The notes under the pieces are model-generated. The model was not told where the DNA came from. It worked only from the letters and a program-made list of their open reading frames with translations, and did no database searches. Shown here piece by piece: positions 20,701 to 44,700 of a DNA stretch of 64,000 nt (position 1 is the first letter of the stretch; each line of letters starts with the position of its first letter). The position numbers and the translations under genes were made by a program. Source of the DNA: Leucoraja ocellata (Eukaryota); the NCBI GenBank assembly GCA_036785375.1, contig JAWMAR010000201.1, forward strand, positions 1,922,001 to 1,986,000. The letters are read 5' to 3'.

Positions 20701-23700
20701 AAGAGGGCTTGAAAACAAAAACAGGGATGTAATGTTAAGGCTCAATAAGGCGCTGATAAGGTCACATTTGGAATATTGTGAGCAATTTTAGGCACCTGAG
20801 GAAGGATGTGCTGGCTTTGGAGAGGGCCCAGAGCAGGTTTATCAGAATGGACAAGGGCTGGTGGGGTATAGACAGCACTGATTTATTCGCGGGAGACCAT
20901 GTCTCGCGACTCTGATTGTTGTTGATGAGGGTAGAACTTCAGAAATTGTATTTATGGATTTCAGCAAAGAATTTGACAAGGTTACACATGGTAGGCCGCA
21001 CTCGAAGGTTAAATCGCATGGCAACCAATGAGATGCAGCTGAATGGAGAGAAAATTGGCTTCATGGAAGGAGGCAGGGGTTGCTTCGTGGAGGACTGTAT
21101 CTACTGATGCGGCTCAGGGTACGGAGCTGGACCTATTGCTGTTTGTCATCTACATCGATGATAGGAATACAAACGGCAAATGGGCTGAGGAATGGTTGGT
21201 GGAATTTACTTCAGAGAAAAGTGATGTATTGCATTTTGGGAAGTATAACAAGGGCAGAACCCACACCGTGAATGGTAGCTTTCTGGGGAGTGTTGTAGAG
21301 CAGATGCATCTAGGAGTGCAGGTCCATAATATCTTAACAGTGGTTTCGCAGATAGCATGAGTGGTCTAAAGGTCTTCCGGCACATTGGCCCTTACCAGTC
21401 GGAGTATTGAGTGTAGAATTTGGGAGGTCTTGTTACAGTTGGATAAGACGTCGGTGAAGACACATTTAGAGTATTGTCTTCAATGTAGATCACTGTGTTA
21501 TAGGAAATATGTTGTCAAGCTGCAAAGGATGCATAGTACATTTCGATAATTTTGCTAGGTCTCGAGGACCTGAGCTGCACGGAGATAGTTTGAGTACGAT
21601 AAGAATGCATTCCTTGAAGAAGTGGTGATCTTGCGGAGGCGGACGTGTACAAAATCAAGAGAGGAATAGTTCCGGTAAAGGCACACAGGCTTTTGCCCAG
21701 AGGAGGGGAATCTGGAACCGAGGCATATAGGTTTAAGATGAGGTTGGACAATTTAGGAGAAATCTTAGTGGTAATCCTTTTACAGAAAGTGCTGGTAGAT
21801 GTGTGGAACGAGCTACCGGAACTGGTAGTTGAGGCAGAGGCCTAAAAAACATTAAAAAAAAAAAGAACATTTGGACAGGTACAAGAAAAGGATATGTTTA
21901 GAGGTAGTATAAGGACAAACGCGGCAGGTGGGACTAGAATGGATGGAGCACTTGACTCTGCGTGGATAAGTTGGGCCGAAGAGCTTGTTTCCACTCTGTA
22001 TAAATCCAGGACTCTATGCCTCTCTGTGTACGACCTCCAATGCTGACAATGCCGCCATATGATGAAAATGGTGATAGCTCATCACAACAACAATTCTCCA
22101 ATGACAATAACACCTTTTAAATTTCAGAAAAGGAATCACTTTCAAAAAATCTAAAACAAATAGGTGAGAACATAATTCATAATTTCTTTGATTGTTTGAC
22201 TGATTCACAAAAATGTTCATAATTCGGANNNNNNNNNNNNNNNNNNNNNNNNNNNNNNNNNNNNNNNNNNNNNNNNNNNNNNNNNNNNNNNNNNNNNNNN
22301 NNNNNNNNNNNNNNNNNNNNNNNNNNNNNNNNNNNNNNNNNNNNNNNNNNNNNNNNNNNNNNNNNNNNNNNNNNNNNNNNNNNNNNNNNNNNNNNTTTTT
22401 TCACTTTCTCGCTTTCTTCCTCTTTCTAGCTTTCTTTCTCTATCCCCCTCTCTCTCTCTCTTTCATTCTTTATTTCTTTCTCTCTTTATCTCTCATATTT
22501 CTTTATTCCTCTCTTTCTCCTTCTCTGGTTACTCTTTACATGACTTCAGTCCTGCGTAAACAAGGAAAGAAGACATTACTGCCCCAGTGCAAAGCCATAT
22601 CCTTCCTTATCATTTCCGTTGCATATACACGTTAGTGACCACAAAATAAGCATCCATTTATGCAGATTTCTTTGGTTTTAATTCTCAGTTAGCAGAGTGC
22701 AGAAAAGTCTATTAATTTGCCTTTTGCCTGATTATTTTATGTGCTTCCAAAAGAAGAAACACTAAGTTTGAAAGAGACAGGTAACTTCCGTAATTCTATC
22801 TAAATGTCAGTTTCAGACAAAATAATTGTTTCGCCTGATCATTGTGAGAAAGAGTTGATCTGTTCAGAATAAACGGATATCACAAGAAATAGTACAAAAC
22901 GCATAAGAATTGCTGAAATCAAAAAGAAACTAATCTGAAACGATGTGTTGACTAGTACTGTGACTATATTTTTCAAAAACTATGTATCGTTAGCAGAAAT
23001 GCGTAGGAGGGAACGGCAGATGCTGGTTCAAACACGAAGATAAACACAAAAACTGGAAACTCAACAAATCAGAATGCCTATTCGGAAAAAAATGAATGTC
23101 ACGCTTCGGGTCGAGACCCTTGTTCAGAGTGGGAAGAAGAAGAATCTTAACCCGTAATGTCACCTATTCCATTTCTTCAACGATGCTGTCTGGCCCGCTT
23201 TTACTCCAGCTTTTTGAGTCTATCTATGGTTAGCGAACATCTACAACGAGCCAGATTAACCTCATTTGTGGGAAATATATTAGAAACATCAGTTCTCGGC
23301 GTGATCATTAGTCACCTGGGGGAAAGTGGTGAAATGGGTGAAGCTGCAGAGGGTAGATTTTGATTAACCAACGATGCAATTTTGGAAATGTACTCGATAG
23401 AGCTGTGGAGGATAACGATCGCTGGACCACTGGGGGTACTTGAACAGAAGGCATATGATATGATGCTGTATAATAGGTTTATTAGAGAAGGGGATGCAAA
23501 TGGCACATACGTTCATTGGGGGCATGGGTACGAAGTCATAAACGCGCAAGGAACCGACCTGAAGATAGCGAGGGGGGATTACTTCAAGAGAGGATATTCC
23601 GTATTAATTTCTTTCTGAGATCTGGGATTGGACGGGGATGGCACGCACAATTTCACGTTTTAGCGGGTGTCAACATTGTCAAGTGAATGGGTTAGTAAAA

Positions 23701-26700
23701 ATCTAAATGGGATTGTCAAGTGCATGCGATAGTAAGGAATTGTTATCACGTGTAGCGATTGGAGAAGATATGGTTATTTTCTTTGGAGAAGAGAAGATTG
23801 GGTGTGAATTTTACGGAACGTATAAATAGTTAATGTGGAAGAGGTGCCTGGGGGGTATTCATTGTAATAAAATAAAACTGGAAGCCCGTATGATTAACAC
23901 GAGAAACATTATTTAATGCAGAGTCTATTTCAAATCTGTTATGTAATCCCTTCAAATGCGATGTAGGTAGGTCCCATCTATACCATACTGACCTAAATGA
24001 GATCTGAATTTCTATACGTTGAAACAATTGTTTTTACATATGGCTATGGAAAAGAAACGGTGGTGCACAATTAGAGAGTTCTTCTAACAGTCCGCGTTGG
24101 CGAATGCCACAGGCGAACCGATCTTTTACCCGGTGACTATTCCATGATTTGATGACTTGGCCTAAGCTAATTTCTAATCAAAAATAGTCGTACGAAATGG
24201 TTCTGAATATTCTTAGTCAGTCCTGCTTCATACAAAGCAGCGGCCAATAATATCGTGGGCATAGATGACCAAAGGAAACTTTAGAACAGAAAGGTCATGC
24301 GTTTCGTAGAGCTACTCCGCGGTGCAAAGTAGCGACAACCACTTTTCATTTTAACAGCATTTACGATTTTCCGACAATTCATGAATTGCAGCGATTCAAG
24401 ATGGCAGCTCACCGCCACCATTTGATGGTCAATTAGGGAACGGCATTTAAATTATGGCTCAACCTGCGAAGCCCTCACCATTTAATCACTCATAAAAACA
24501 TTTAATTATGTCATTACGTATGGGTTGGATACTGACTATAATGTTTCTGATCATTGATTAAAATGGACATTGAATTTGACCAATATATGAAAACATCTGA
24601 TAAAAAAAAGCCTTCAAAATAATTAAAAGGATGATTAGCATCTGCTTCTAACAATTGTTTTAACATAATATTGCTTGTATTATAATTAATATTTGTTGAG
24701 CTTCTTAACTATTCTACTATCTCGATGCCTTATAAAAGTATGTTTATTATTTATCAATGATTTGCTACGGTTTTGCTTCAGCGCCATTATTTGTCTTTTT
24801 TTCTCGGGTTCAGAATTTTCCCAGTGCAGAATTGATGGTAAGTAGAAAATCTTAATTTCCGAACTAACTCTAATCTAACTCATTGGGCGCATTCCTTGAA
24901 TTGTGCTTCTCTGAGATATATATTGGTAACCGAGAATGTGATCGCATGCACATGCAACTGTATTCCTTCATAGAAACATAGACACATAGAAAACAGATGC
25001 AGGAGTAGGCCATTCGGCCCTTCAAGCCAGCACCGCCATTCAATAAAATCATGGCTGATCATCCAAAATAACCAATCATTTGTAAAATGCATTATAATAC
25101 AGAATCAGCACAATAATTCACGCCTTGGTCAGTATTGAACCCTGGTCTCTGGCGCTGCAAGACATCATCAAACGGTGGGGCTGCGCGTTGAAAATTCTGC
25201 GCAGCTTGCCGCGAGGTGCAGAGGTTTTGTGACGTCATCCAGCTCGCTTTAGCACTTTAGATTTTAATAAGATGTTAGGCTGGTGAAAATGTTTTGTAAT
25301 AAACTCGGGAAATAATAAATGAAATTTTCAGATGAGGGGATTTTTTTGAAATCATGAGGTAAACATCTACCGGAATATGTAAAAATGTCGCCCTTATCGC
25401 GTCGGGTTTCCGACGAGATGTGAATCAAAGAAAAACGTCAAGTAAGCAAACACACAAGCAAACAACCAAGATCAGAGTTTTATAGTACTAGAGATTGGCT
25501 AAACGCGGGCAGCTGTGATTAGTTTCGATCGATTATCAAGGACGTCCTGGTTCAATTGATCTGTTCCTATGCTGGATAACTCTATTACTGTAAACAATGC
25601 ACAATACAACTCTGTGGACTGCACTAGTCGATGAGCATATTCATTCGACGATAAATAAAGCCTGAGCATAGGACGGGGTGGGCAAGAAAGCAGCGTGCGT
25701 CATGGTTACTGATTTGTCCAACGTCCGTTCCACTTTTTGAAAGCTCAGCGTGCTGTCATGCAACTTTGGCACTACAACGCACCTCCAATGCCGGCGTTGT
25801 TCGAATCTCGTGTTTAAACCCAGAACTGATATTTGCATTCCAGGACTAACAAGTTCGATAGCATTTTTAATAGCAAAATTCGTTCTTCGCCGGCGATGTG
25901 TGATTATTGCAATGTGTTTGCTTTGTTACAGACGAAGAACTACGCGAGAAAGATGGAGGTGTCGTTAAATTTACAATTCTAAAACTTGAAATTTTATTTA
26001 TTTTTTTAATCTTGCTATAGCGACTTCCGCGCTCGACGAAATTCATACCTTTGTGATGTTAATTCCACGTTCCCCAGTACAGCTAATGGTTCCTTTCTTT
26101 AATGTGATGTTGGATCTTCACTATCAAACCAATAACTATGATTTGTGAAACCACACTGCAAAACATTGAAATGTAGAATTTCATTTTAATTTTCCGGTGT
26201 TGTTAAGCTTTATATTCTGGTGATGCTATTTGTTTATTTTTACACAATCACATTTTCCATCATCTGGGGGTACGAAATTTGCGCAATAATTAACGAACGG
26301 TGTTAGCATTGTCTTCCAGATCTGGATACTGGGCAGAAATTTATGTTTGTGGTGGTAATGACTGGACCACATTGCATCAAATTTCTATCCCGCACCAACG
26401 CGGAAGCAAGAGATTACCTTTACAATCAAGGAACAGCTGATACTAGAAAACAAGGACAGAAAGTGTAGAGTAAACTAGTTGGTCACGCAGCATCACTGGA
26501 GAATATGGATGTGTGACGTTTCGTGCCGACGTCCTTTTAAAACTAATTGTGTGCGAGGGTGGAAAGTTGGAAGAGGAAAGGGGCAAAACCAGGCGTTGTG
26601 GGGGAGAGGAAAGGGTTATAAAAGAGGCTGAACAAAAAGCGTCGTGGGGCGATGTAGACAAAGCTGGAAAAGCGAAGCGGCAGGCAAAGCTTTGTGGGGA

Positions 26701-29700
26701 GAAAAACATCTAGGAGGGGCAGGACAAAGCGTAGTTTTTGGCCATATTTTACTCCCGTAAAACCTCTCACCCTGGTAATCTTCCATGAATGGCTGATATA
26801 TAATTTCAAAAATTGAAGCCGTAAGGCAAATAGTTTCAGTAATACTTTCAGTAAATAAGTCTCTACTCGCAAATATAATTTAAATACATTATATTTTCAT
26901 TTATAGCCTACCCTATGGTCGGAGATTGTGCCGAGTTCCAGTGAAATGTATGAACCATAAGTCTTCCGGTAGACAGTACCCTCTCACAAGGAACAATTTG
27001 CCCGACGACTCCTGGGGCAAGATGAAGCTGACAACATCTACCCTATTGTGGCGCCCGCCTGTTTAAAGTATAAAAGCCCCACGGTGTTTGGGATGATGTA
27101 ACAGGACTTCGGAAATGGTGAAGAGAAATCAGTGGAGAGGATGGATAACAATTTTCATTTTAAAAAGCCTGGAAAAGAAATGCATACACACAAGTAAATG
27201 CTCAAAAATCGCTGTGGTGCAAAAACAATTGACTTTTTTTATATTCTTCCCGATTTTTGAATATCCACCGATATGAAGGAGATTCAATATTAAAGATTCT
27301 AACAAAGTCAGAGAACAACGAGTACTTAGTTATGCAAAGCTACCCAGATATTAAAAGTGTGTGAACCGTCATTGTTTGCAATATGCTTTAATGGTTAACA
27401 ATCGCCAATCACGATAAATGACATGCAATGATAATATTTGCAAGTGCTTATGATAAACAGATGATTGATAATTGGTAAAAAATAATCAAAGGGCATGTGT
27501 CTCCGCTACGACAAGTATAAATTTCACTGTGACTGCTGCAAATTATAACGGAAGCAACTTCGACTTTAAATTTTAACAAAAAGGCGAGAATATCAGATTT
27601 CGTTAAATATGGGGAACCGGTGGATTCATTCTTCCTCAAATTAAAACGAACACTGCACCTATGGGTTGACAATGTAACGCCCTGTTTTGCATAAAAAAGA
27701 GCTGCGAAAGCAAGTTATTTCCATGTGAACATGTAATGACTACAAATGACAAATAGGTTTTCATTTACTTGCAGAAATAGCATCTTTGAAAAAAAGACAT
27801 CAAGAAACAGGTCAGTGGGGAAAAAAGCAATTAAAGCAGGAACAGTTTTTTTGTTTTTACACTACCCGAAGTCAAATCAACAGAATATCCCAGTATTACA
27901 ATCGGGGTATTTAAATACATAAATGGGACATTTATGGACATTGTAGGACATTTGACTGGAAATGATTTGTCTTACAAGAGAATTCCCATTGAAATGATCG
28001 GGGACTTAATGGCAGTAACCTATTTCATTACTGTGGGGTTCTTCACATGAACATGGTTGTTCTTCAAACGAAAGGATCAAAAGTGTCAGGAGAACTTGAT
28101 GCTTTTTTTTTATTTTATACAGTGCGTTGTTTAGGTATCGCGGCGGAAGTGGAATTATTTTTAATTGTAGTATTTAAAATATACCTGAGACGAAATAATT
28201 TGCAGGGCTCTGGATGACGGACGAAGAGTGGGCTATCAGATTTGCTCTAACATATTAACCATATAACCATATAACAATTACAGCACGGAAACAGGCCATC
28301 TCGGCCCTACAAGTCCGTGCCGAACATTTTTTTTCCCCTTAGTCCCACCTGCCTGCACTCATACCATAACCCTCCAATATTGTTGGTACGAATAGCCTCC
28401 TTCCATCCTTTGATTTCCATGGCAAATTCAGATTTGACAATAGCAAGAAAAAAAGCAAAATCGCAATTTAATTTGGAGTAAGACCATCCATTTACATGTT
28501 TGTTTTCCATCTGGACAATAAAAGATTACGTGAAAATTTATCAGTATTGTGGCTGTGGATGGCAATATAGGGTGATATATTGTGAGCGTTTAGACTAAAT
28601 GTATTCTTAGGAAATTACAAAATCCGAAAAGAATCACGGTATCGAGAAAAAAGGTGTGCATTATTTTCTCTTCAACAATGGAACAGGTGGGCTTTCACTG
28701 AAAACATCGGGTTAGGAAGGAGGTCGAGTGTCCAGATAACGGCAGATGCTATTACATTTTCGAGGCTAGGGTCATATGGGACTGGAATTGGAGAGCACAA
28801 ACTCGCAAAAAATACCCAAGTGTGCTTTGCCACTGATGCACATTGCGAAAGGCACATTGAAGGGACAGCCAGGAAAGGCAATTTACGTCTAAATGTGTAC
28901 CAGGAAGTATAGTGTCAGATTGCATCACAGATTGGTTTGGGAACAGCTCTGCCCATAACCATGAGAAAACGTAGATAGTTGTGGATGTCGCAAGTCCATC
29001 AGGCAAACCAGAATCCCCATCATCGACTTCACACACTTCACACTGTCTTGGGAGAGTAGTCACCAAGATCAACAGTCTTTCCTACCTAGGCATTCCTTCT
29101 TCTCACCGTTCCCATGCAGAAAACGGTACAGAGGAATGGTCGCGCACAACCAGACTCAATGTTACATTATTCCCCTCTGTTAACTGGCTCCAGCACAGTC
29201 ATTGCATAGGCTAGGGCATGGATTTCCCTCTACCTCGACCAGACTCCTCTTCTACATAAGACATTGTCTCTGGAACTGTTGCGCACTAATACTGGGAGCT
29301 ATGTTATGCACTGTGTACATTTTCATGTACTCTACCTATTGTACTTGAATTTGGCTCGATTTTATGCAAGTATCCTCTTATCTAAATTGAATGTATAGCA
29401 TACAAAACAACGCTTTTACTCTGTACCTCGGTTCACTTTGCAATACGACATCTAAATATTAGCAAAGAAACGAAGGTGTTGCCCTTTTTTTCCTTTTTGA
29501 GTCGTGAAAATAGCAAAGTCATACCCTTTCACAGATTCAATCTTTTCACGTTATTGATATATAAGTCTCACTAGTGTGAGTTTAGTTCGCCTCTCTTCAA
29601 GGTGGAACAGATATTCTGTCACAAAAATGTCCAACGATCGTAAAAGGGAGTCCGACCTGGCATCTGCATATGAAGCAGCATTTCCAACCAGACTTGCCGG

Positions 29701-32700
29701 CCTGGATGACAAAATAATGACGAAGTTCCCAATTAATATTATTGTGCGTAATCTTGGGCACCATATCTCAGGAAGGATGTGCTGGCTCCGGAGAGGAGGT
29801 TTACACGAATAATACCAGAATGAGTAGGTTAAACTATAGTGAGCGTTTGTCGGCACTGGGCCTGTACTCGCTGGTGTTCAAAAGAATGAGTGGGGACCTC
29901 TTTGAAACATACATTATAGTGAAATGCTTCGATAGAATGGATGTGGAGAGGATATTTCCACTAGGGGGGTAGTCTAGGACTCGAGGTCATAGCGTCAATA
30001 TTAAAAGTATTTATTTTAGGAAGGAGAAGATAAGACATTTATTTAGTCAGAGGGTGGTGAATCTATGGAATGCTGTGCCGCGGAAGGCGGTGGAGGTCAA
30101 GTCAGTGGATATTTTTAAGGCTGAGATCGATAGATTTTTGATTAGTACAGGTGTCAGAGGTATGTGGAGAATGCAGGAGAATGGGGTTAGTACGAAAATA
30201 TAGATCAGCCATGTTTGAGTGGCGGTGTAGAACTGATGGGCCGAATGGTTTAATTCTACTCCTATCACTTGTGACCTTATGATCTGAATACAATGCAGCG
30301 AATTGCCCAGTATCAATTTCTGCATAATTATCACCAGCATGCTTAAACGTTGACGCTGATGCAGACGTGTTCTGTTTTGCTATGCAGAGCGCTTCCCACC
30401 GTCTCATCGTTTTACATATAAACAGTCAATAGTGTCTGCAATGAAAACGCTGAGCGGTTGGAGAATAAGGAAATAGAGGGGCGGAGAACGGAGGTAAACG
30501 CGTTGTTTCGCATATTCCTGAGAAAGGCACTACAGCTTCACGACTTTAAACGTAACCGCACTATTTCATTAATTGCTCTTCTCCACAATAACATTCCGTT
30601 AAAGGGAAATGTCTGCCCGGGCGTAATCACAACACTTCAAAATAAATGTTCGAAATGAAGAAGTTAAACAAATCAAAACAATTGCATAAGCCATCCGTCC
30701 TCAGTTCGATCCTGCCTGTGCATAAACACTATTTGTTCTGAAATGTTAAGACACGCGCGGGAGCTACATTATTACTAGAGAGAAAATGAACTTGCTGCAA
30801 AACTGCATGTTGACGGTAATGTAATCAGAACATTCGACTTTCTATTCGAAAGTCGAAAGCGTTCATAACCATTCAATGTCCCAATCCCATCGATTCATTT
30901 AAAGCGCTTGACTCAATGAGGCGGAATTGCATCAGCTATTATAACACAGGGACGTTGGGTCTTGTTACGTGTAGGTTCCGCCGAAGATGAGCCGTTGACG
31001 CTGAAACGAAGAACAATGTTAAAACAAAGGAAGATTAGGTTCATTAAAAACGACTGGGGGAGGAGCAAGGGGGGGGGGGGGGGGGGGGTCAGCAGTCACA
31101 TGACTCTTCAATCTCAATTTCGCATTACGTGTTTTCGGTGCTCCCTATTTATTTAACACTGTCTATTTGGATAAATTTAAAAAATCTTCACCTCGCTTGC
31201 TTCTATTTGCAGAATATGATTTGGAGAGTAAAGATGCAGGTAACAGAGTTAATATCTTTCGATATTCTCGCAGCAAAATACAATTGTACTGATTAGATAT
31301 GGCACTTCCAGACATTGTACCAGGCACATAAATGTGGGGACGACTGTGTCTAGTAAGATATTGTGCACGGTCTCCTGTCTCTCTTTCGCCGCGCCAATAT
31401 CTACTAGGCACGATTCCCGAATGCAATTTAACGGACATTGAATGATTCCAGCAAGGCAATGCCAGAGAAGATTGACAATTTAAAGTAAAACTCCAGCACT
31501 ACGTTGATAGCCATAACCATTAATTTTACCTCGCATTGCACTACCTAAGTGCAACGTGTATCATTCAGAAACTATATTATAATTTACTTGCCACACCTGT
31601 AGATTGCCGAAACCCCCCAAAATTCTGCCAAAACGTAAGGCGAAATGTATATTCCGTGTCACATATGAATGTATATTCCGTGTCACATATGAATGTATAT
31701 TCCGTGTCACATATGATTCCGACCAACAACTATGTCAGCAATCCTTTGTAATCCTTTGAACCACCGATACTCCATGGCCAACGGCATTTTGTAAGCGGTT
31801 TTCTGAAAAGGATTTGTTTCGCTTATTTAGCGAGGTTAAGTTCAGCGAGGTACAGTGAAAAACTCTGTTGTGTACCATCCACTCAGGAGAAAGACTATAC
31901 ATAATTAAAATCAAGCCGTCCACATTGTGCAGATAAAATGATAATGGGCACAACGTTTAGTTCGAGGTAAAGTCAGATTAAAAATAGTTTCAATGTCCCC
32001 AAAGATGTAGATGGGAGGCCAGTATCTCTCACTAGCTGGCGAGAGGACAGGTGAGTTGCCTGATAACAGCTGGGAAGGGAATGTCTCTAAACCTGGAGTT
32101 GTTCGTTTTAAAACTTCTTCAGCTGAAGCCTGAAAGGATATGGGAGAATAGGGAGTGATCGGGGGAGACAGGTGAGATAAGCTTGGTTGGGATAATGGTA
32201 TTGAACGCAGAGCTCTATACTATGAATAGAATTTTTACATAAGTGTCCTTGTTATGCACGTGTTCCAAAGGATGAGTGTAGGGCCAGGAAGATAGCATTA
32301 GCCGTGAACCTGCTGTGGCATAGGCACATTTCAGTCAATCAAGGCCTTCAGATGGGAGTGAGCATCACAGTTTAACCATGGCTTCCGGTTGGGTAACACC
32401 TAGGATTCAATGTGTTCCAAAAGCAACCTTTCGAAGCACTTGATGATGGTGCATATCAAGGCCACTGTGCGGTTTGCATTAAGCCATGAAATCGTGCTTT
32501 TGTTTGGCACTAGATTAACTGTCTTGATGCAGTTGGGTACTTCCGAATGGAGTAGTGAAGGATTAAACACTACTAGTTGCTCCGGGCATTTCCCGAGGAA
32601 CTGCATCCGGCCAGTGGCTTTCTGTGGGTTCACTCCCAGGAGGCCGATCGAACTTCTGCAATAGTGCCCCTGGGAAAATACATATTGGAGTCTGATGGGA

Positions 32701-35700
32701 GAACTGTCTTTGGCCCTCTGCTCAAAGTGCGAATATAATGCATTATATTCATAAGGGAGGGTTGCACTATCACCATCGATGCTGCCTGACCTCGTTTTTC
32801 AGACAGTTATAGTATTCAGGCCTTGGCACCGCTTGGCACCATACTGAGGCTCAGGTTTGTCCCGGTATTGTCTCTGGAGAGCAGGAACGGATAACGTATG
32901 CTGCCTGTCACCAGCATGTTGTGCACCCGTTCATTCTCTCCAGAAATGTTCCCTGGCCCGTTGAGTTATTCCAGCATTTTGTGTCTATCATCGTTTCAAA
33001 CCAGCATCTGCAGTTCTTTCCTACACACACCGTCCCCGCAAGTACAGACGAAGTTAGTCACGGAATACCTATTCAGTTTGGCCACCGATTCTCTGAGCAT
33101 TGAACGCTCAACTGACTTACATCATTCGAGGACGATGTTTGTTTTGCAGACCAGCATTGTCCGGACTTCTGCTCCGGATCTTCCCGCGTTAGTTCTTTTT
33201 TTGCTGGCAGGGAGCAAAAATACAACGAGCAGATCAGATTTGCCGAAAAGTGGCCGGGACGAGGAGAGGTAGGAGAGGTAGGACAAGGGACGCATCTAAC
33301 CATTGTTTTTTTATGAAAGTGTAGCAGTGGTCGAGGATGTTCTGGTCCCTGGGGGGTCAAGAGACATGTTGATAGTATTTTGGTAATAAGTTCTTGAGGT
33401 TGGCTTGAATGAGGTTGCCGTCTACAATGTCCAGGGCTTCGGGGTGTTTTGTCTCAAGGCTATTGGTAACGGAGTATATAGTTAATTCTCAGGATTAGGT
33501 TAACGTCAGGATGGGTAGGAATGTAGACTGCTGTCTGGATAGCTGAGGTTAATTCCCGCGGCATGACTTGTGTTCTAGCTTTAAATAAGGTGACATCATT
33601 GCTTTCAGCAGGGCGAATAAGAATGCTAAAGGTCCGCTGGACTCCCAGCGTACATGTCCTTCTGTAAAGTACAAAATAATCCGAAGCATCGGAAAACAGA
33701 GAAATAAGTAAGAGCACAATGCTTCTATAAAGCGCCCAAACTTGGCGGGGGTTGGGGAAGATGCTTCATGGAAATGGCAACTTACTTACATGAACAGGTG
33801 GGTGCACAATGTATGAATGTTTGGTGAAATAATGCTCCATGCCGTTACTACCAATGTTTAAGCGTAAATATATGTTATACTTAATGTCCATAAGATGAAA
33901 CATATGATGAAATGAAAAGCATCTGATGACAATTTAAGAGAAAATTATTGAACTTCTAATGGCATTAAAAAAATACGGGTTTTATGTTTGTTTAGAACTA
34001 GTCAAACTGAAGAAAGCGTTGCTGCTTTCAGGTAAGGCACGAACGGGTGGTATGTTCTTACTTTTTGAATAACACGAATCATGAAAATAGATAAAAAATC
34101 CCTTGATTCCATTTTCTAAGATTCTAACATTGCTTGCCATTTGATATAATACCAATTAGCTGATACGTCCATTATTAATTAAAGATTAAAGTTAATATGG
34201 ATTTGACGCATATCATTCCAAGAAATGAGTATAAACATAGGCCAATGCTTCCCCAGGGAATTTGTTTGGAATAGTAGGAAAGCAGAGACATGCCTACTGT
34301 CAACTAAATCAACCATATCAGATATTCATGAGAGATGTACTTATACTATTTGAAGAAGAAACGTCCTCGATGCTATGGTTCTTTCGTCGTATTAGTGAAA
34401 CGTATGTGGTGATTATGATGTAGTTGAAACTGATGGAAAATCTATTGTTAGAACTTGCAAAATATACATCTGAAGATTATATTTAGCTGCAAAGTCTAAA
34501 TTACAATTAAAACACAAAGTACTTGTGCTATAATTCCAAGATAAACGCTCAACTAAGAAAGATCAAGGCCAAAGTATTATCTAACTATCCAACTAAATAT
34601 ATCAACTTATAATAAATAACACAGTATGCAAAAACAGCTACCTACGCATTAACTAGCTCTTAAACAAAACTAATCCTGTAGATGCAAGTATATCATTGGG
34701 GTTATCAAGTGGGTACCTCTCTTCACTGAGAAATACTAGTTATACATCCTGACAAAATATGCTTCAACGTTGACACTTCTGAACACAAGGGACGCATCTA
34801 ACCATTGTTTGAGGTTCTACGGTGATGCCAGCACATCATAAATAGCCCTCATAAGGAAACTTGCATGACCCGCATCCATGGACCGCAGGTCCATCCTGTT
34901 AAACCTCATCTTGTTTACACTTGCCCAATTCATCCACTGTCCCTGCTTAACATGAGCTACTTCCCTTAAACATGCCATTGCTTCCTCCTGACGACGTACC
35001 CGCTCTACAACCAATGTCCTCCTTTCTGTTGGATCTGCTGTACTCCGCACTGGTTTCCCTGTGCTGAGCCTGAAGTCTCCTTTCCCTCGCTTTATCCTAT
35101 CAACAATGACTTCCCCTCAGTGCTGCTTGTGCTCCTTCTACTGGCTGCGTTGAGTTCTACTTCCCTCCTCTAGTTACACATGCACCAGATTACTGTCTAA
35201 TGTAACCGTGCTCCCTGAAAATTGCAACTCCACCCTCACCATAGCATGCTTAAACTGCTCTGTTAGGCTGGGCAATGATACATGGGGAATTCCTTCCCCA
35301 TACAGACAATAGGTGCAGGAGTGGGCCATTCGGCCCTTCGAGCCAGCACAGCCATTTAATGTGATCATGGCTGATCATCCCCAATCAGTACCCCGATCCT
35401 GCCTTCCCATATCTTCCGACTCCGCAAAGAATGAACCATTTATTACTCATCTGCGTTAATTTTAACCGGTGTGTTCCCTGCTAAATTTGTTTAAAAAAAT
35501 TAACATGGGATTTTACCCCAAAAAATGGGAATGGATATATTTTTATTCGATTTTGCTGTGCAAATCCATCGTTTCTTGTATAAGAACGAAACCAATGCAG
35601 TCGATTTTTCTGAAATACATTATTGTGAATTGTCAGGAATTGCAAATACTTCTTTCATAACTACAGGAAAATGGAGAGAGTAAAAACAACTAAATTAACT

Positions 35701-38700
35701 ATCAGGATAACAGAAGAAAGAAAAACACGTATCTCATATCATTTATAACAGAAAATAAGAGCATTCTGTCTGTGATATCTAGATTAGTTCAGCATTGTAT
35801 CAGCTCTATTCCCATAGTTGATTCCCTTGCACACCGCCGAATCTTAATTGAACTTTCTGCTTTTGGTTGAAATGAGGAACAACGCAAACTGCCGAATAAA
35901 TCTCTTGGCCTTTAGGATGGGAGAAACAGAGTAGGCGAATATAATACAGCGACGACTTCAACGACTTGACGGATCTGTTTCCCTTTTGGTATTTTATTTT
36001 GTTCATTTAAATGTTCTGTTCCCTTAGATATTAATAAGAGGAGCTACGTGGACGGTAAGTACATATTCGTGGAAAAGTAACGAACCCCTAGTTCCTTTAA
36101 GTTTGATAAGGCAACAGACTGCGTTTTTCCAACCCGTAGGCGCTTCTAGATGTTTTTTTAATGAAACGCGCATGCGGGACGTACGTACCTGACTACCGTG
36201 AACATGCTGCAGTCATGCGGCCTCTTATCAAACAATCCCTTTCAGGATGCTCGAAACAAAAAAGTGATCAATTGTTGTTTCCATGTTCTTCATGGTCATA
36301 TCCAAATGCTATCGCATGAGTTAGCAGATTTCTTCCAAGAGAATATATTTTCTCCACAAATGGAGGCCCATCGACGAATTTAATCTTTGCAGCCTCTCCG
36401 AAAAATATCCCTTAAGTGCCCTTTCCACATATTATTCCACTGCAACATATCCTCTCACGCGTGCCATCAAGTACACCCCCACCACTTTAAATAACCAGCT
36501 ATCCCATTGTGCAAATTTGCAGTAGCCCACTTGCATAGCAACCTGCATGTCTTTGGGATATGGGCGGAATCAAGAATATTAGAGGTAACCCACGCGATCA
36601 CAGACAGTATACGCATAATTCACAAGCAAAAATTCGGAAATCTTGATTGAAACGTGATATGATTTTATTGATATTAAAGCATTTCAGCTAATGTACCACC
36701 ACTAGTGTTGGTAGAAATGGCCTATACAACACTTGGTCTATAAAATAATAGCGAATAAAATGGAGGTTGAGGGAACGCGGATGGGCACTCGACATTGTTG
36801 CCATTCAGCGCGGCGGTAGATATGTCTGTCCTGCCATTGCCAATGGTCCGTTGTTCACTCGAAGAATCAGGGAATCAGAATGGTACAGTGCATCTCCGCC
36901 ATCTCAATCAAAGATTGTAGGAAGAACCAACTCTTCACTAATGTTCAAAATGAGCGAACGTTTTGCAGATGAAAACTTATCTTCGATTAAAGCCAAAATC
37001 AGTGAACCTTTATCCGGAGACCTAAAGCCAACTGTCCTTTTGAAGTTATTCTTACCGTTCCTCTGTCAATTGTTTCTAATGGAAACATCTTCTCCATATC
37101 CAATCTGTCCACGCCTTTCATAATACCAAACATTTCTCTGGCTTACCCTCATCTTTCTAAACAGCAGAGAGTACAGGCCCAGAGCCGTCAAACGCTCACC
37201 ATGCGTTAACACAATCATACGGAATCTTTCTCGTAAACGTCTTCGGGACCCTCTCCAACACCAGCGTGTCCTGCCCAGATTTGGGCCCCAAAACTGCTCA
37301 CAATGCTTCAAATGCCGTCTAGCCAGTGCCAGCATCCTTGGTTTTATATTCTAGCCTCTCAAATTGAATGCCACCTTCGCGTTTGCCTTCCTTACTACCG
37401 ATTTAACCTGCAAATTAATATTTTGCGACTCCTGCACCAGCACTCCCAAGTGTCTTTGCAGCTCCGATTTCCGAATCCTTTTCACATCTAGAATATAGAC
37501 TACGCCATTCCTATTACCTGTCCATAACTACACACTTTGCCACGCTGTATTTAATCTGCCATTGCATTGCCCACTCTCGCAAAATGCCGAAGTCATTCTG
37601 CAGACTCACTGCTTCATCTGCATTACCTGCCCCTCAACCCATCCTCGTGCCATCAACTCCATCACCTAAATCATTGATAAACATCGTGAAATGTAGCGGA
37701 CCGAACATTAACCCTTACAGAACACCAGTAGTCATAGGCACCCAATCGAATAAGCTCCCTTTATTCACACTCTTTGCCGTCTGCCATGTTGTCAATCTTC
37801 TCTCCATGCTATTACTCCAAAATACCATAGGTTCTCATCCTGCTCTATGGCCTCACGTGCGGTCGTTTATAAAAGGACTGAAAATCAAAATAAATAACAT
37901 CCGCTGATACCCCTTTGTGTATGCTGCTATTTACTTCCTCGAAAATATCCAACAGATTAGTCGGGCAAGATCCCTCCAGCTTGTCTCTCGTCCCATTGAA
38001 GATACGTCTGCTCCAATTGTAAATGTTCACTTTAGATTGTCACAAAATGAAGCAAATGTTAAAAGCAGAGGCGTCAGGTAACGTTCAAAGGCGCGCTTCT
38101 ATGCGTACGCGTACTCTTGTCAGCGAAGACCATCACATACGTGCAAATGCCAGGTAAAAATCAAGGGCATTTTAGCATGTATTTTGAGAGGATTTGAATA
38201 CAAGACCAAGCAAGTGACACGGTGGTGTATGTGATTTTGATGAGACCATAACTGGATCGTTATGGAACTTTACATAATGAGGCATATAGCCGTGGAGGGA
38301 GTTCAAAAACCATTCACTCATTTGATTTCAGGGATAATGGGTTTGCCGAATGAGGAGATATTAACTTGACACAAACATCATTTCCTGGATTTAGGAGAGC
38401 TAGACAACATTTCAAGACCAAAGTTATTTCAGGGCTTGGCATGCTTAATCCAGATACACTTCTTTCTCTGATTTATGTGTCTAAACCCCATGGACCACTT
38501 TTTACGAATAGAGGAATCTCTGTTTAGGTCTGAAATAAGATGACACGTATTCACTCAGTCTGCGAAATTCTTTCTTCTGGAGTGTTAGGGAATTTCAATT
38601 CGTGCATCTGAACAAAACATTGATCAATATTTTTTGAACAGCATGTGTTATGTGAAAGTGTTGGGAAATGATGATACCAAAATATTAATAGCAGATGACA

Positions 38701-41700
38701 CTTAATAGAAGGTTTGCAGGCCTATTTCTACCATTCCTCGCGTGCTTTCGCCTGCAGTGGGATCATGCGAAAGGCAAATGTTTCCACAATGTGTAATATA
38801 TTTTAGAATAGCACTGAGAATCATAAACCATACCGACATCTGGTAGTTTCAGTTTAATTTAGGGGTTTCGAGGCCTTTCCTGTTGTAGACAAGTATTCCT
38901 CGTATTAATCCAGAATAATATTCGAAATCGTATTTCTTAAGTTATCGCTTGAATTCACTTTGCAGATGAAGAATTGCGTGAAAAGGATGCAGGTATGGTA
39001 TTCTCGTGGTGGCGCTGTCGGCGATGGCAGTCTGTCGGTATTTTCGTAGTTTTTGTTAGCTTTAGTCTGTTTTAACAATATGTGATAATGTTCACTGGTT
39101 TCTTTTATGTGGGGGGTGGGGGTCGGGGAAAACCTTTTTCAATCTCTTACCTTGCCAGAGATGCGATTGTTTTCCGTATCGATGCTAGGTTCCTCTGCGG
39201 CCTAACATCATGGAGCAGGCGGCCTAGCTCGAGACTGACTTTGAGCTCCACCGCGGGTCCATGCACTTACCATCGGAGCCTGTGATCCCTTGCCTGGGAT
39301 TGACACTCCAAACGCGGCCTGTGGATTTCAACATCGAGGAGCTTGCAGTCTCGGGTAGAGAATGATGTTGAGAAGTGACGAAGATGCGGGTGGGCGTTCC
39401 ATTGGTATCCTGGATCACCAGCTATCTGACTGGCCGACCTCAAAGTATGACAGACTGCAGAATTGTGTCATGGTAGCGAGCAACACAGGGACCCCGATGG
39501 GGACGGTTTTCTCTCCCTTCCTGTTCACCATCTACCCCTGGACTTCATATACAACTCGGCCTCCTGCCAACTATAGACGTTTTCGGATGACTGTGCAATT
39601 GTGGGCTGCATCAGTGAGGAGAGGGAAGCTGAATACAGAGGTGTAGTCAATTACTTTGGTGAATGGTGTGGGCTAAATCATGTCCATTGACAATACTAAG
39701 GAGTTGGTGCTGGATTTTAGGAGTAGAGGAACACCCCTGCCTCTGTTTCCATCAAGGGTGTAGATGTACAGTTTACCATGCAGTGCAGTACCTTGAAATT
39801 TAGCTGGACAGTAGACTAGACTGGTCCAGTAATGCTTAGTGCAGTGCAGAAGAAGGGACAGAACCGTCTGTACCTTCTAAGGAGGCCCCGTCCCTTTAAC
39901 GTCAGCAGTGAGATGCTGCAGATGTTCTATCAATCGGTGGTGGCCAGTGCAATCTTCTAAGTTGTCATGTGCTAGGGTGACAGGGCGAAGGCCGCGGACG
40001 GTAACATAATCAACAGGCTCATCAGGAAGGCTGGCTCCGTTCTGCGAATGGAGTTGGATTAATTGGAGGAGGTCTTGCAGGGGATATAATTAAGTGAAAA
40101 GGGAGTTGTCAGTGACAATAATTCAATGTTAAGATACCGATTAAATGGATTTAGCTCACGGTTGCGTTAACTTAGATAGAGTTAGGAAAGGCCACAAAAT
40201 GCCGGGAAGAGGTCTAGATACGACAGCGTGAGGAACACATAGATACTACCAAACTACAGAAAAAAAAATGCAGCTTATATACTTCTGGATGACGAGTTTT
40301 ATTGGATATCACCAAAATGAAACGAGGCGCATTTGTTGTGTTTGGAATATATACCGGTAATTGAAATAAAACCACATGTCACTGTTGAATTAGACAAGAC
40401 ATCAAACTAAGGCCTGAGTGGTCATCTTATGTTCTAAATTCATTCTTAATCCACGATTCTTTCCAATTTAGAAATCACAGCGTTGAAAAGAAAGCTGCAA
40501 GAAACAGGTCAGGAGAAAGAAATGCTAATATTTTCAATCATCAATGTATATATACACAATATACAAACTCGTCAATATAAACACAACAGAAGTTCACCTC
40601 CATGGTTTGTTAGATAAGTAAAAACAAACATTACGTACGCTCTGCAAAAGTAAGCGTTTCAACTCCGTCATTCAAGTGAATTGGTGTGGGAGATTCTGAA
40701 AGCGTGCGCAAAATACTCCAGTCAGTTAGCCCGCACAGGTTTTGCGAAGGCGACCAAGCACACCGTCAGGTCCCGCGGTGCAATTTCATGAAAAATCTTC
40801 TGACATCGGCCTCGGTGATTGAGATTACAATGTGATCGAGAACTATGGGGACCAGAGCAGGACATCAGTGTGCTTCTTTTCAATGTGCGTTCATTGAGCT
40901 CACCTGAGAATGATGCTCCAGTGTCATGTAAGATAGCATTTAGTTTCGCCTTGTAAGAGCTGATGATGTGCATGTGCCGTGATTGCCAAACGTTCGTCCC
41001 ATCCTTCAATGTAGAGTGAAAATATCTATGAATCTTTTTAATGGCCTTGTCAAGGTGGTAACTGGAAGTCCTACGTGAATCTGCATCGCCAGAATTGAAT
41101 TCCAAAGATCTAGTCCTTAGACGATTGCGGACCTGGTCCATTCAAGGTTTGCGGTTGGGTAACACTCGGGTGGGTTAGGAGACCACCCCCACACACTTCC
41201 TCGTGCAATCTTCTCCACGCACTTCCTTATGAAGTCGGTAACAACCGTGACGCATTCGGTCTGGTCCGTTCCGGAGTCTTTGCATTTCGCCAGTCTACCG
41301 AATCGAAATAAACCCGAAGCAATTCTTCCGTCTATGACCGGCTCTGGGCAGTCCTCGCAGCTGAAGCTGCGCCTCTTCAATCGCTGCCCCTGTATTCACG
41401 AGGAAGCAGCAGAGGCAGGTGTTCAGACTTCCCAAAGTGAGTGCGAAGGATGGAACGTTAGGTATCTTTAATGGTGGAATAACTATGATGCAGGGCGCTT
41501 CATTTCTAGGTACTGGGGAACTTGTTGCATATGAACATATGTAACCATATAATATTACCTTGAGCGTAGCCGAGACCACAAGTGAAGATTTCCGTTTTAC
41601 GATTTTGGACATTTTGCCGGCAACTTGATTGGCTTGCTGTCGAGAGAGCACACTGAAGTTTCACCATGTCTGTGGAGACAGTAGAATGGCGTTGAGAGGA

Positions 41701-44700
41701 AAAGGTAGATCAGCCATGATTTAATGGCTGAGTAGACTCGATGGGATGAATGGCCAAATTCTGCTCATAGGACTTCCGACATGAATAAAATAAGCTGCAG
41801 GGAGGTTTGTTGAGTTATGATGGCCGTGGGAGATTAAACGTTGGGTGACCATATGGGTAAACTATAAACGCGGATATCTGTTCAAAGTTAGATCCTGGGA
41901 ATATAGAAAAAATAATATTATTTTGAAACACCTGGAGTTGCAAAATAGACCTGGTTTGGAAGTGTGATTTGAAGGCAGGTGAAGCGATGTTCTGTTATTA
42001 AATTAATGGATCTCTTGCAAATCTCACGACAATGTAATGGAACAATATTTAAACATAAATAAATAAACAAATATAATTAAATTACCGTTGACACTCCATT
42101 AGTGTAGAAGAAGTGCAGCATTGAAGCAGGTCACAGGGTAAAATAATTGACACAAGTGTATAAGCACATATTGCTCACTAATTTTCAACATGCGGCGTGA
42201 CTGACTGTCCACGCTCAGTGCGAACACGCAGCATGACACGCTCTGACACGAATTGCCAAGCAACTTTTATATTCTTTTAAACAATACATTGAAAACTATT
42301 GAGTAAAATTCTCCCAAATGTACTTAATATTCTGCAGGGGAATCTATTGTATTTCACCTGATACCTAATGACTTTGTGTATTAACAGAGGAAAAAATGCG
42401 TCTGGGCAAAGGAGGTAAATTACTTCGGCGATGTATTTCACGATACCGGGCAACGGGTATTTCTCTGACAGTTCGAGGAGGAGGAAGAAGGACATTATTC
42501 CGGAAATCTATGCAAACAGTAAACACAGAACTTACGACGCTCACCTTTTTGTGACCTTCACAACGAGTGGCATGTGCAGAATTATAAAGCAAAATGTACA
42601 ATGAATTCTTCTCCATATGTATACCAAAAGTACAATAAGGCGTTTTACTTTCATCTATGAATTTGGCTTGTTAAAATAAGATTATGATTCCGTCTTTTGT
42701 CACCCTTTGCAGTTATGTAGCAATATTCGACATAGGTATAGATTTTCATTGTTCGCGCTATGACATTCCCAGTCAATATTGCTAAACTAAAAATCCCCTG
42801 TTATGACAACCTTATTAGACATTTGCTCTTTTAACTTCCAATGACTATTTGATGCCCTGAAGTACACCCCGAAAAAGGTGATCTTCCCTTTCTTGTTCCT
42901 CAGATCCATCGCATAGTGTCACGAGCCGAACAGTTCGTAATGTCCCGTCTGACAACTGGTGTCACATCCACCTTAGCCAATGATGCAACATACCTTCAAC
43001 TTTTACGCTCACATCTGTCTCTTTTGAAGCACTTTTGCACCAAATTTGGGCACCATATTTGAGGAAGGATGTGCTGGCTCTGGAGAGGGTCCAGAGGATG
43101 TTTACAAGAATGATCCCATGAATGAGTAGGTTAACCTGTGGTGAGCGTTTATATGCGCTTGGCCTGTACTCGCTGGCGTTCATAAGAATGAATAATAAAT
43201 TGAGCATTAGAATTTTTACGGGTAATTGAAATTGAACTACATTTTATTGTTTAATTAGACAAGAAATTAATCTAAGGCCCAAGTCGTCATCTTATCCTCA
43301 TCCACGTTTCTTTACAATTTAGAAATCTCAACGTTGAAAAGAAAGCAGCAAGAAACAGGTCAGTTGAAAGAAATGTTAAAACTTTCAATGAATGAGGTAA
43401 ATATAAAACTGAAGTTCACTTATCCGTGGTTGTCGGATATGTAAAAATAAGTATTACTTTTCAATAGACAATAGACAATAGGTGCAGGAGTATGCCATTC
43501 GGCCCTTCGAGCCAGCACCGCCATTCAATGTGATCATGGTAGATCATTCCCAATCAGTACCTCGTTCCTGCCTTCTCCCCATATCACCTAACCGCTATTT
43601 TTAAGAGCAATGTCTAGCTCTCTCTTGAAAGCATCCACATAACACACCCCCACCGCCCTCTGAGGCAGAGAATTCCACACTCACCACTCTCTGTGAGAAA
43701 ACATGTTTCCTCGGCTCCGTTCTAAATGGCTTACTTCTTATTCTTAAGGCTTACTCCTTATTTTCCTTTTCGTTCTGCAAAATTGATCGCTTCAGCTCCA
43801 TTCGGTCATTCAAGTTAATTATTATGGAATGGGTGGAGCGATATTCTCCAGAGACAATTTGCGTATTTTTGTATCTTCCCCCTTCTGCACTTTGTCCAGC
43901 GCAGTTCCTAACCTTCCTGAATTGATGGAGAAACGTAACCGTGCAACGTGTTGAGAACGAGCTGCTGAAATGGCAGAGAACTATTAGGTTCGCACTTCGC
44001 ATGTGTATCGAGAATCGTGCACACGCTGGATGTCAGTTACATTAACATGTGCTCTTTTGCTCCACGCCGTCTTCTTTGCTGAGCACGATTTTATTTTGCC
44101 TCGTGCTGAACGGACATATTATCTATACGATACTCAATTTTACAAGAAAATGACTGTGGCCATTTAAATTTACCATTAAAACATCCACACGGGTTTTGAG
44201 AAGGCGACCAATCACACCATCAGGCCCAGGCGCTTTCCTAGGGTGCAACATCATGAAGGATCTTCTGACATCGGCCTCGTTGACTGAGATTTCAATGCCA
44301 CCCGGGGCTACAGTGGCCTTAGAATTCAAGAAATCCTAGAAATCCGCATTCTAGTTTTCCAAGTGTACATAATACCTTTGAGCTCATCTGGGAATGTGGC
44401 CACACTGTCACATAAGTTGGCACTTGGTTTCGCCTTGTAGGTTGTGATAGTGTCCAAGTACTCTCGTAGATGCCAATCGCCCGTCGCATCCTCCAATTTA
44501 CAATGAAAGCGTCTCATCGTTTCAGATGGCCTTATCGAAGTGTTTCCTGAACCTCTGATATGAATCTCCATCGCCAGACATGAACAACTGAGATTTGGTT
44601 CTCAGTGGATTGCGGACCTGGTTCATCCAAGACGTTTGAAGAACACTTGAATGGATTGGTGGGAGCGCACTTGCCAATATATTTTATTATGAAGTCGGTA

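Follow-up and report, generated by a model that had tools for sequence, protein, structure and literature searches.

What kind of gene is assembled from exons of 27 nucleotides (nt), and how does selection treat such exons once they have been duplicated? The question is raised by a 64,000-nt stretch of the Leucoraja ocellata genome (3.44 Gb), i.e., positions 1922001-1986000 of contig JAWMAR010000201.1 (C201), in which two 27-nt segments of the plus strand, 25932-25958 and 38966-38992, encode nearly the same nine residues. Coordinates refer to this stretch, the window, unless a contig is named. A first-pass annotation had taken the pair for ancient paralogous exons held by purifying selection. 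We consider it highly probable that the two segments are coding exons of one very large cartilaginous-fish gene (gene A), which would encode a ~1,900-residue coiled-coil rod with a B30.2 tip and would grow by modules of 27 + 36 nt that diverge fast and are then constrained.

Each segment of the pair is preceded by an AG acceptor with a pyrimidine tract (ttacAG at 25932, ttgcAG at 38966) and followed by a GT donor (GTGTCG, which is weak, after the first; GTATGG after the second). The 27-mers differ at 7 of 27 positions (2, 9, 11, 14, 17, 20, and 25). In phase 1, where the first base comes from a preceding exon that ends in G, these are 6 synonymous differences and 1 replacement, exactly the count first reported, and the peptides read DEELREKDG and DEELREKDA; phase 0 gives 1 synonymous difference and 6 replacements, and phase 2 gives 0 and 5, plus 2 stop-containing codons. 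The nominal binomial P of this split (2.4e-4, for 5 silent and 22 replacement sites) is post hoc because the pair is the best case among the 4371 pairs formed by 94 27-nt exons. Seven of those pairs have no more than 2 residue differences, and among the seven this one alone has at least 6 nucleotide differences; one other pair of 27-nt exons differs at 4 bases with 0 residue changes. The flanks and intervening introns of the pair align locally with scores of 20-23, within the range of shuffled sequence (from 35 of 60 to 120 of 200 shuffles score as high), whereas a control flank alignment between young modules scores 196 (0 of 200 shuffles as high, shuffle maximum 34), which bears out the reported lack of intron similarity. 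Self-comparison and shuffled local alignment likewise found no flank homology between either exon and three other look-alike exons. The 36-nt exons that follow the two 27-mers, at 27775-27810 and 40472-40507, are indeed related (7 of 12 residues identical, 9 nt differences), and their 3.5 silent and 5.5 replacement changes show no significant bias on their own (P = 0.10). Taken alone, the pair is ordinary, modest evidence of a coding exon.

Phase-1 translation is supported far more strongly by a frame-blind stop test, a second contig, and a homologue in Narcine (the latter two treated below) than by the pair. The frame-blind scan, which scored intronic splice positions only and used splice matrices trained on phase-1 candidates, covered the 510-kb span of gene A. 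At 27 nt and at 36 nt it returned 62 candidates each, where other lengths averaged 7.8; on the minus strand the two lengths gave 9 and 5, respectively. Internal stops occur in 2 of 124 candidates read in phase 1, versus 74 of 124 in phase 0 and 51 of 124 in phase 2.

Gene A spans C201 ~1606321-2116725 (~510 kb, plus strand) and so contains the whole window. Phase-1 microexons run from ~1606321 to 2115241 and are followed by a last exon, 2116180-2116725, ~130 kb beyond the right end of the window, that matches the Pfam SPRY domain (E 5.7e-15; PRY unmatched at E 0.001). With overlapping alternatives removed, together with motifs derived from long interspersed nuclear elements (LINEs) and present on both strands, the model holds 186 microexon candidates: 94 of 27 nt, 77 of 36 nt, and 15 of other lengths, the doubtful 38036-38077 and 56166-56183 included. 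Coding sequence amounts to ~1,900 residues, or ~1.1% of the span, and the exons are 67% purine. The two lengths alternate in 121 of 170 steps (shuffle mean 84.6, maximum 110 in 10,000). A 27 + 36 nt module corresponds to 9 + 12 residues, that is, 21 residues or three heptads, and module positions 4, 11, 14, and 18 are hydrophobic in 79, 94, 94, and 82% of exons.

Selection on old and young modules

Old and young module copies behave differently. Among old, unalignable nearest-neighbour pairs, third positions account for 219 of 543 differences in 27-nt exons (59 pairs) and 266 of 635 in 36-nt exons (49 pairs), and the silent fraction is 0.27-0.28, versus 0.15-0.20 in the other frames, for pairs that are not independent. 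Young pairs with alignable introns have no third-position excess (30 of 90 in 16 pairs of 27-nt exons; 24 of 72 in 15 pairs of 36-nt exons). The first-pass annotation had staked its reading on a third-position bias across all modules; a modest one is found among the old copies and none among the young. Purifying selection between paralogous modules thus holds for the pair itself and is the exception rather than the rule.

The young copies are best seen in a tandem array of 36 + 27-nt modules that fills 40131-64000 and runs past the window to contig position ~1991 kb, with modules of a few kb each and alignable introns of ~65-85% identity. From 40472 onward, the pairwise ratio of replacement to silent rates (dN/dS) is 1.41 for 36-nt and 1.12 for 27-nt exons. 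The ten young 27-nt exons (42388-63149 in the window, plus contig positions 1987558 and 1991045) required 53 parsimony steps against 28.3 expected from their introns, above all 110 sliding intron windows, and a wider alignment of six copies gave 32 steps against 15.7. Young 27-nt exons therefore diverge about twice as fast as introns, the reverse of the pattern in the pair. Mapped onto intron trees, their changes number 6.8 silent and 46.2 replacement (omega 1.9). Elsewhere in gene A, the 20 young pairs listed likewise differ chiefly by altered codons.

Present-day constraint is a separate matter. Contig C2012, presumed to be the other allele, aligns to C201 1877588-2055889 (159 of 176 kb colinear), and long colinear alignments of the two underlie the comparison; the exon at 53419 could not be mapped to C2012. 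Across 76 exons there are 6 silent and 5 replacement differences, where the intron difference of 1.57% predicts 28.8 replacements (Poisson P 6e-8), and AG and GT are kept in 75 of 76. Within the pair, the exon at 25932 is identical in C2012 and that at 38966 has one silent difference. Together, these data point to fast replacement, and then constraint, after module duplication.

A mechanism consistent with these patterns can be proposed. With every exon in phase 1 and a multiple of three in length, modules could be inserted or left out with the reading frame intact, and the heptad register would survive the addition of a 27 + 36 pair. Modules are likely duplicated by unequal crossing-over; new copies would diverge quickly in protein and later be held by purifying selection, losing with age both their intron likeness and their silent identity. 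The exons at 25932 and 38966 would then be an old copy whose residues happened to persist as its introns and silent sites became scrambled. All exons are presumed to be spliced into one transcript, and the product is likely a cytosolic rod, dimeric to judge from its heptad pattern, that presents the B30.2 domain. If it formed one continuous helix, with a rise of 0.15 nm per residue, its predicted reach would be ~280 nm. Young modules may diverge under pressure from a ligand or pathogen, or through the avoidance of out-of-register pairing between identical repeats, a notion familiar from work on repeat proteins.

Counterevidence and alternative readings

Several points weigh against the reading of a single giant gene with fast-then-constrained modules. 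The gene model rests on genomic sequence, with splicing predicted; its start exon was not found, the first microexon (1606321) carrying an in-frame ATG; and it is interrupted by two 200-N gaps, at 1745700 and 2055890, neither of them bridged by a second contig. Searches with single sequences turned up no longer homologue (E 1e-20; E 1e-5), which is weak evidence, as proteins of up to 2000 residues were covered. The acceleration comes from one array of 10 exons of 9 codons each, and the silent/replacement ratio of young 27-nt exons is by itself not significant (P 0.07). For young 36-nt exons, the omega of 3.0 on intron trees (3.2 silent, 27.8 replacement changes; P 0.024) comes from few silent changes, and these exons are no faster than introns (31 steps against 46.7 expected; 28 against 33.8 without 43323, excluded from this rate test for a nearby insertion). 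The allele status of C2012 is presumptive. Two other contig pairs differ by 0 silent and 2 replacement and by 1 and 4 changes, respectively, and the three contig pairs pooled have 11 replacements against 43.8 expected, with a P of 0.06 for the ratio test alone.

The alternative that survives best, possible though in our view unlikely, accepts the exons as coding and holds that young modules are under relaxed constraint, the apparent acceleration of their 27-nt exons arising from gene conversion among introns, from an alignment biased toward conserved intron columns, or from CpG mutability. Beyond the non-significant silent/replacement test, it draws on the 12 of 26 exon columns that are CpG-prone, on several young 27-nt exons that contain Pro or Gly and fit a helix poorly, and on intron trees that are nearly star-like. 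The excess remains, however, at non-CpG columns (P 0.02 and 0.002), and in pairwise alignments made without the all-ungapped filter, 44 of 45 pairs of young 27-nt exons are more divergent than their introns (P 1e-4 by column resampling). Their silent rate (6.8 changes over ~5.8 sites, ~1.2 per site) is close to the intron rate of 1.09, and therefore the two yardsticks agree. Arguing against relaxation today, 18 young exons have 0 replacements between C201 and C2012 against 6.5 expected (P 0.0015). The replacement-to-silent ratio is 74:10 for divergence versus 5:6 for polymorphism (Fisher P 0.003).

It is improbable that the window exons form a gene of their own, or a fragment of one, without connection to the SPRY exon, whether through a scaffold misjoin or because several genes lie in tandem. 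This would suit the two unbridged gaps, and there is a parallel in two neighbouring arrays (genes B and C, below), which meet tail-to-tail at a different gap without an intervening SPRY exon. Since the gaps are unbridged, the link from window to SPRY exon depends on scaffolding, shared strand, and continued alternation. Strand and 36-then-27 order do continue over the gap at 2055890 (exons 2054322 and 2056712), no other SPRY or terminal exon was found inside the span of gene A, and C2012 is continuous across the 200-N run inside the window.

Quite improbable, too, is that the 27-mers match by convergence on a family consensus, E-E-x-L-R-x-K-D/E, and not by direct duplication. Silent sites in the pair are saturated (a silent divergence, pS, of 1.2), other DEEL-like exons occur in three genes, gene C has a similar 27 + 36 module (DEEAREKNS + EIASLKKNLIDT), and the closest nucleotide neighbour of the 38966 exon is one at contig position 2049651 (5 differences, 4 residues changed). 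Yet just 0.03 matches at 8 of 9 residues would be expected among the 4371 pairs by class-profile chance alone, so shared ancestry is likelier than convergence, and the downstream 36-nt exons (27775 and 40472) lie close to each other in nucleotide sequence (8-9 differences) and share a GTCAG donor. We conclude that the two exons likely stem from an old module duplication. This much of the first-pass annotation stands; the two need not be sisters, and the duplication cannot be dated because silent sites are saturated.

Exons of the window and relatives of gene A

All microexons of the window lie on the plus strand. Upstream of and around the pair, 36-nt exons are placed at 2675-2710, 7180-7215, 13681-13716, 22128-22163, and 33996-34031, in addition to the phase-1 exon at 27775-27810. 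The 27-nt exons there are ASKLNARNT (3633-3659; one replacement difference in C2012), DESLRTKDT (11552-11578), ELEEKLKNA (19836-19862), EEKMLSTQK (19973-19999), EETLSLKET (22754-22780; weak acceptor), and EYDLESKDA (31213-31239), the last of which falls between the two modules of the pair. The weak donor GTGTCG at 25959 makes the first exon of the pair, itself in phase 1 like the second, a candidate for regulated skipping.

The young array opens with the 36-nt exon at 40472-40507 and continues with 36-nt exons at 43323-43358, 46596-46631, 50113-50148, 55219-55254, 59284-59319, and 62434-62469. Its 27-nt exons within the window are EEKMRLGKG (42388-42414), DGSMHQKEA (46045-46071), DEIMRQREA (47605-47631), GGNIHQNET (51126-51152), DEPMHQNDT (53419-53445; no preceding 36-nt partner found), DGKMRQYEA (56464-56490), DETTRQKEA (60191-60217), and DEPILQHDA (63123-63149). 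In the young 36-nt exons (40472-62469), ~3 of 31 changes are silent and replacements cluster at residues 3-4; the scarcity of silent changes possibly reflects constraint at the nucleotide level, such as splicing enhancers.

Pairs of 27-nt exons ~100-110 bases apart recur (19836-19999 in the window; contig 1609031-1609188 and 1236725-1236879), and close-set pairs near 5' ends carry cysteines (EQKLRQCQK, ELQEKCKRE) that could cross-link rods. Near-identical copies of 149 bases at 10720-10868 and 11121-11268 flank the 200-N run of the window, which looks like an unmerged contig overlap. The introns are full of degraded LINE reverse-transcriptase fragments (16981-18513 and others), some of which yield false microexon candidates on both strands.

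Close SPRY matches in the genome number six and occupy four loci; two of these loci seem to be present twice, as allelic contigs. Contig C253 carries two complete-looking, shorter family members that run from an MS first exon to SPRY (737714-797769 and 1844905-1926252), the second with a young internal expansion of its own (EIETLKENLKFC-type repeats), and a further microexon array lies upstream on that contig at 842-873 kb. On C201, gene B (1433254-1586038, minus strand) is a microexon array head-to-head with gene A, ~20 kb away. The two begin with a similar 36-nt exon, and tblastx of their upstream regions gave only repeats among the matches listed. Gene B runs into an assembly gap, and the span examined contains no SPRY exon for it. 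Gene C (1183047-1431072, plus strand, more than 100 candidate exons) starts beyond the span examined, lies tail-to-tail with gene B at the same gap, again with no SPRY exon in that span, and may be mis-oriented or continue elsewhere. Downstream neighbours on C201 are presumably, from their motifs, a Shaker-type KCNA channel (2157943 onward), importin-9 (2228957-2270540), and a KDM5-like gene (2283592).

In protein databases, a profile search gave 29 matches among 7180 candidates, and the sole true family member was Narcine XP_069775385, a 372-residue protein with a coiled coil and SPRY and without RING. Top profile matches of 1484 and 951 residues were set aside as tandem TRIM read-through models that score through several SPRY domains. 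The Narcine bancroftii models (XP_069775384-90; 353-378 residues) bear the automatic name "zinc-binding protein A33-like," i.e., the sole database homologue found is a short model misnamed as a TRIM. Five isoforms vary in where they start and in whole cassettes of 9 and 6 residues. The C253 genes are colinear with the Narcine model exon by exon: they begin with the same two-residue MS phase-1 exon, and one of their 27-nt exons corresponds to the cassette that is skipped in Narcine. SPRY identity to Narcine is 66% and 58% for the C253 genes and 39% for gene A. The Narcine models are orthologous to the C253 subfamily rather than to gene A. A literature search found no description of a microexon family with coiled coil and divergent B30.2 in the journals covered, most subscription journals lying outside that coverage.

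Placement among TRIM, butyrophilin, and BG genes

Gene A shares part of its layout with two familiar families. Like a TRIM, it has a coiled coil (heptad pattern) ahead of a PRY-SPRY-type end, and like a butyrophilin it has short phase-1 heptad exons before its B30.2 exon. The features of chicken BG genes (a single immunoglobulin [Ig] V domain with a transmembrane segment, 21-nt exons, no B30.2) are not those of gene A, in which 171 of 186 exons measure 27 or 36 nt. A tblastn search of 1.06 Mb of C201 and 240 kb of C253 with ray and chimaera TRIM queries recovered only SPRY exons and no RING or B-box; of four control TRIM loci, two yielded RING/B-box exons to the same queries. A shark BTN-like query over the same regions also recovered only SPRY, though a very divergent Ig exon might escape. 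Genome-wide, a C2-set_3 search placed 0 of 74 matches (107 candidates) on C201, a motif scan for Ig domains was also negative, and a PRY search gave no C201 match among 150 of 916 candidates scored. No convincing signal-peptide or transmembrane exon was seen in the 20 kb upstream of gene A, and such exons are absent from the Narcine and C253 models. As these searches turned up no RING, B-box, or Ig exon and no convincing transmembrane exon, gene A counts by definition as neither a TRIM nor a butyrophilin. The idea that TRIMs always have a 27-nt exon ahead of SPRY found no support in four TRIM loci of this genome, and the control TRIM loci have no 27/36-nt exon array.

It is very improbable that upstream domain exons were missed and that the array really belongs to a membrane butyrophilin/BG-like gene, as its cytoplasmic tail, or to a TRIM, as its coiled coil: the SPRY profile does match BTN3A1 best among solved structures (E 2.5e-33), then TRIM58/TRIM21 (~1e-24), its Atlas neighbours are butyrophilin-named SPRY clusters, a canonical IgV-IgC-transmembrane gene of this genome has a 27-nt phase-1 exon directly before B30.2, and the nearest full-length matches after Narcine are A33-like TRIMs, but the TRIM and BTN-like queries returned nothing other than SPRY exons from the stretches of C201 and C253 searched, only ~20 kb separates gene A from gene B, and the Narcine models and both C253 genes start with MS and a microexon.

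In a 27-row SPRY tree, five family domains come together with 100/100 support at the end of a long branch. The tree favours neither origin, TRIM or butyrophilin, over the other, and its two BTN-like rows fall in different places. One TRIM of this genome clusters with proteins of Rhinoraja and Leucoraja. As a separate observation, contig C666 (630001-650000) carries a butyrophilin-like gene of canonical IgV-IgC-transmembrane-B30.2 layout. Its B30.2 is placed with those of two Pristis TRIMs (100/100), a hint that TRIM and BTN genes may have exchanged domains in rays.

With no signal, Ig, or transmembrane exon found and two sister genes starting with an MS exon, we infer a cytosolic location for the predicted product. 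By analogy, its most likely role, about as probable as not, is that of a scaffold or sensor inside the cell, comparable to the intracellular part of a butyrophilin or BG protein, in which the rod would set oligomer state and reach and B30.2 would bind a ligand. More tentatively, and with doubt prevailing, rays may possess a cluster of giant B30.2 rod genes, lacking both RING and Ig, that gain length through duplicated three-heptad modules, in which positive selection would rewrite the 27-nt half (in a pathogen arms race, or to give each module a unique "address" that keeps register) before a purifying lock sets in. If this is true, gene A would represent a dated series of duplication-and-rewriting events in one locus. 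Whatever the cause, its old, middle-aged, and young module copies lie side by side and allow a direct test of how repeat proteins diversify after internal duplication.

Among known proteins, enterophilin-1 is alike in being a soluble, extended leucine zipper that ends in B30.2 and is not known to carry RING or Ig. It is mammalian and much shorter than the gene A product, and the likeness drawn here is one of architecture. The Narcine models share with gene A the coiled coil, the divergent SPRY, and the lack of RING; they differ in being short and in a name that implies a TRIM. Class IV TRIMs of cartilaginous fish (A33-like/TRIM39-like) likewise run from coiled coil to PRY-SPRY, whereas no RING or B-box was detected in gene A. 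In butyrophilins a handful of heptad exons precede B30.2; they can be skipped in frame, and their number varies by lineage (PMC6790196, PMC12841164). The intracellular part of BTN/BTNL thus resembles gene A in its short heptad exons followed by a B30.2 exon, and BTN/BTNL proteins differ in the small number of those exons and in their IgV, IgC, and transmembrane segments; the B30.2 of gene A sits on a long separate branch. Chicken BG tails consist of 13-36 exons of 21 nt (sometimes 18 or 24) with a heptad repeat, and variation in this coiled-coil tail is reported as selected (PMC4046983, PMC5938342, PMC8813856). Chicken BG and the soluble "zipper protein" accordingly share with gene A a long heptad tail in many tiny split-codon exons of variable number, and BG differs in its Ig-V and transmembrane segment, its lack of B30.2, and its 21-nt exons in place of a 27/36 alternation. 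Gene A, if read correctly, would carry the "heptad exon" design of butyrophilin and BG genes an order of magnitude further and away from the membrane, and its fast replacement followed by constraint would echo the reports that variation in chicken BG tails is selected.

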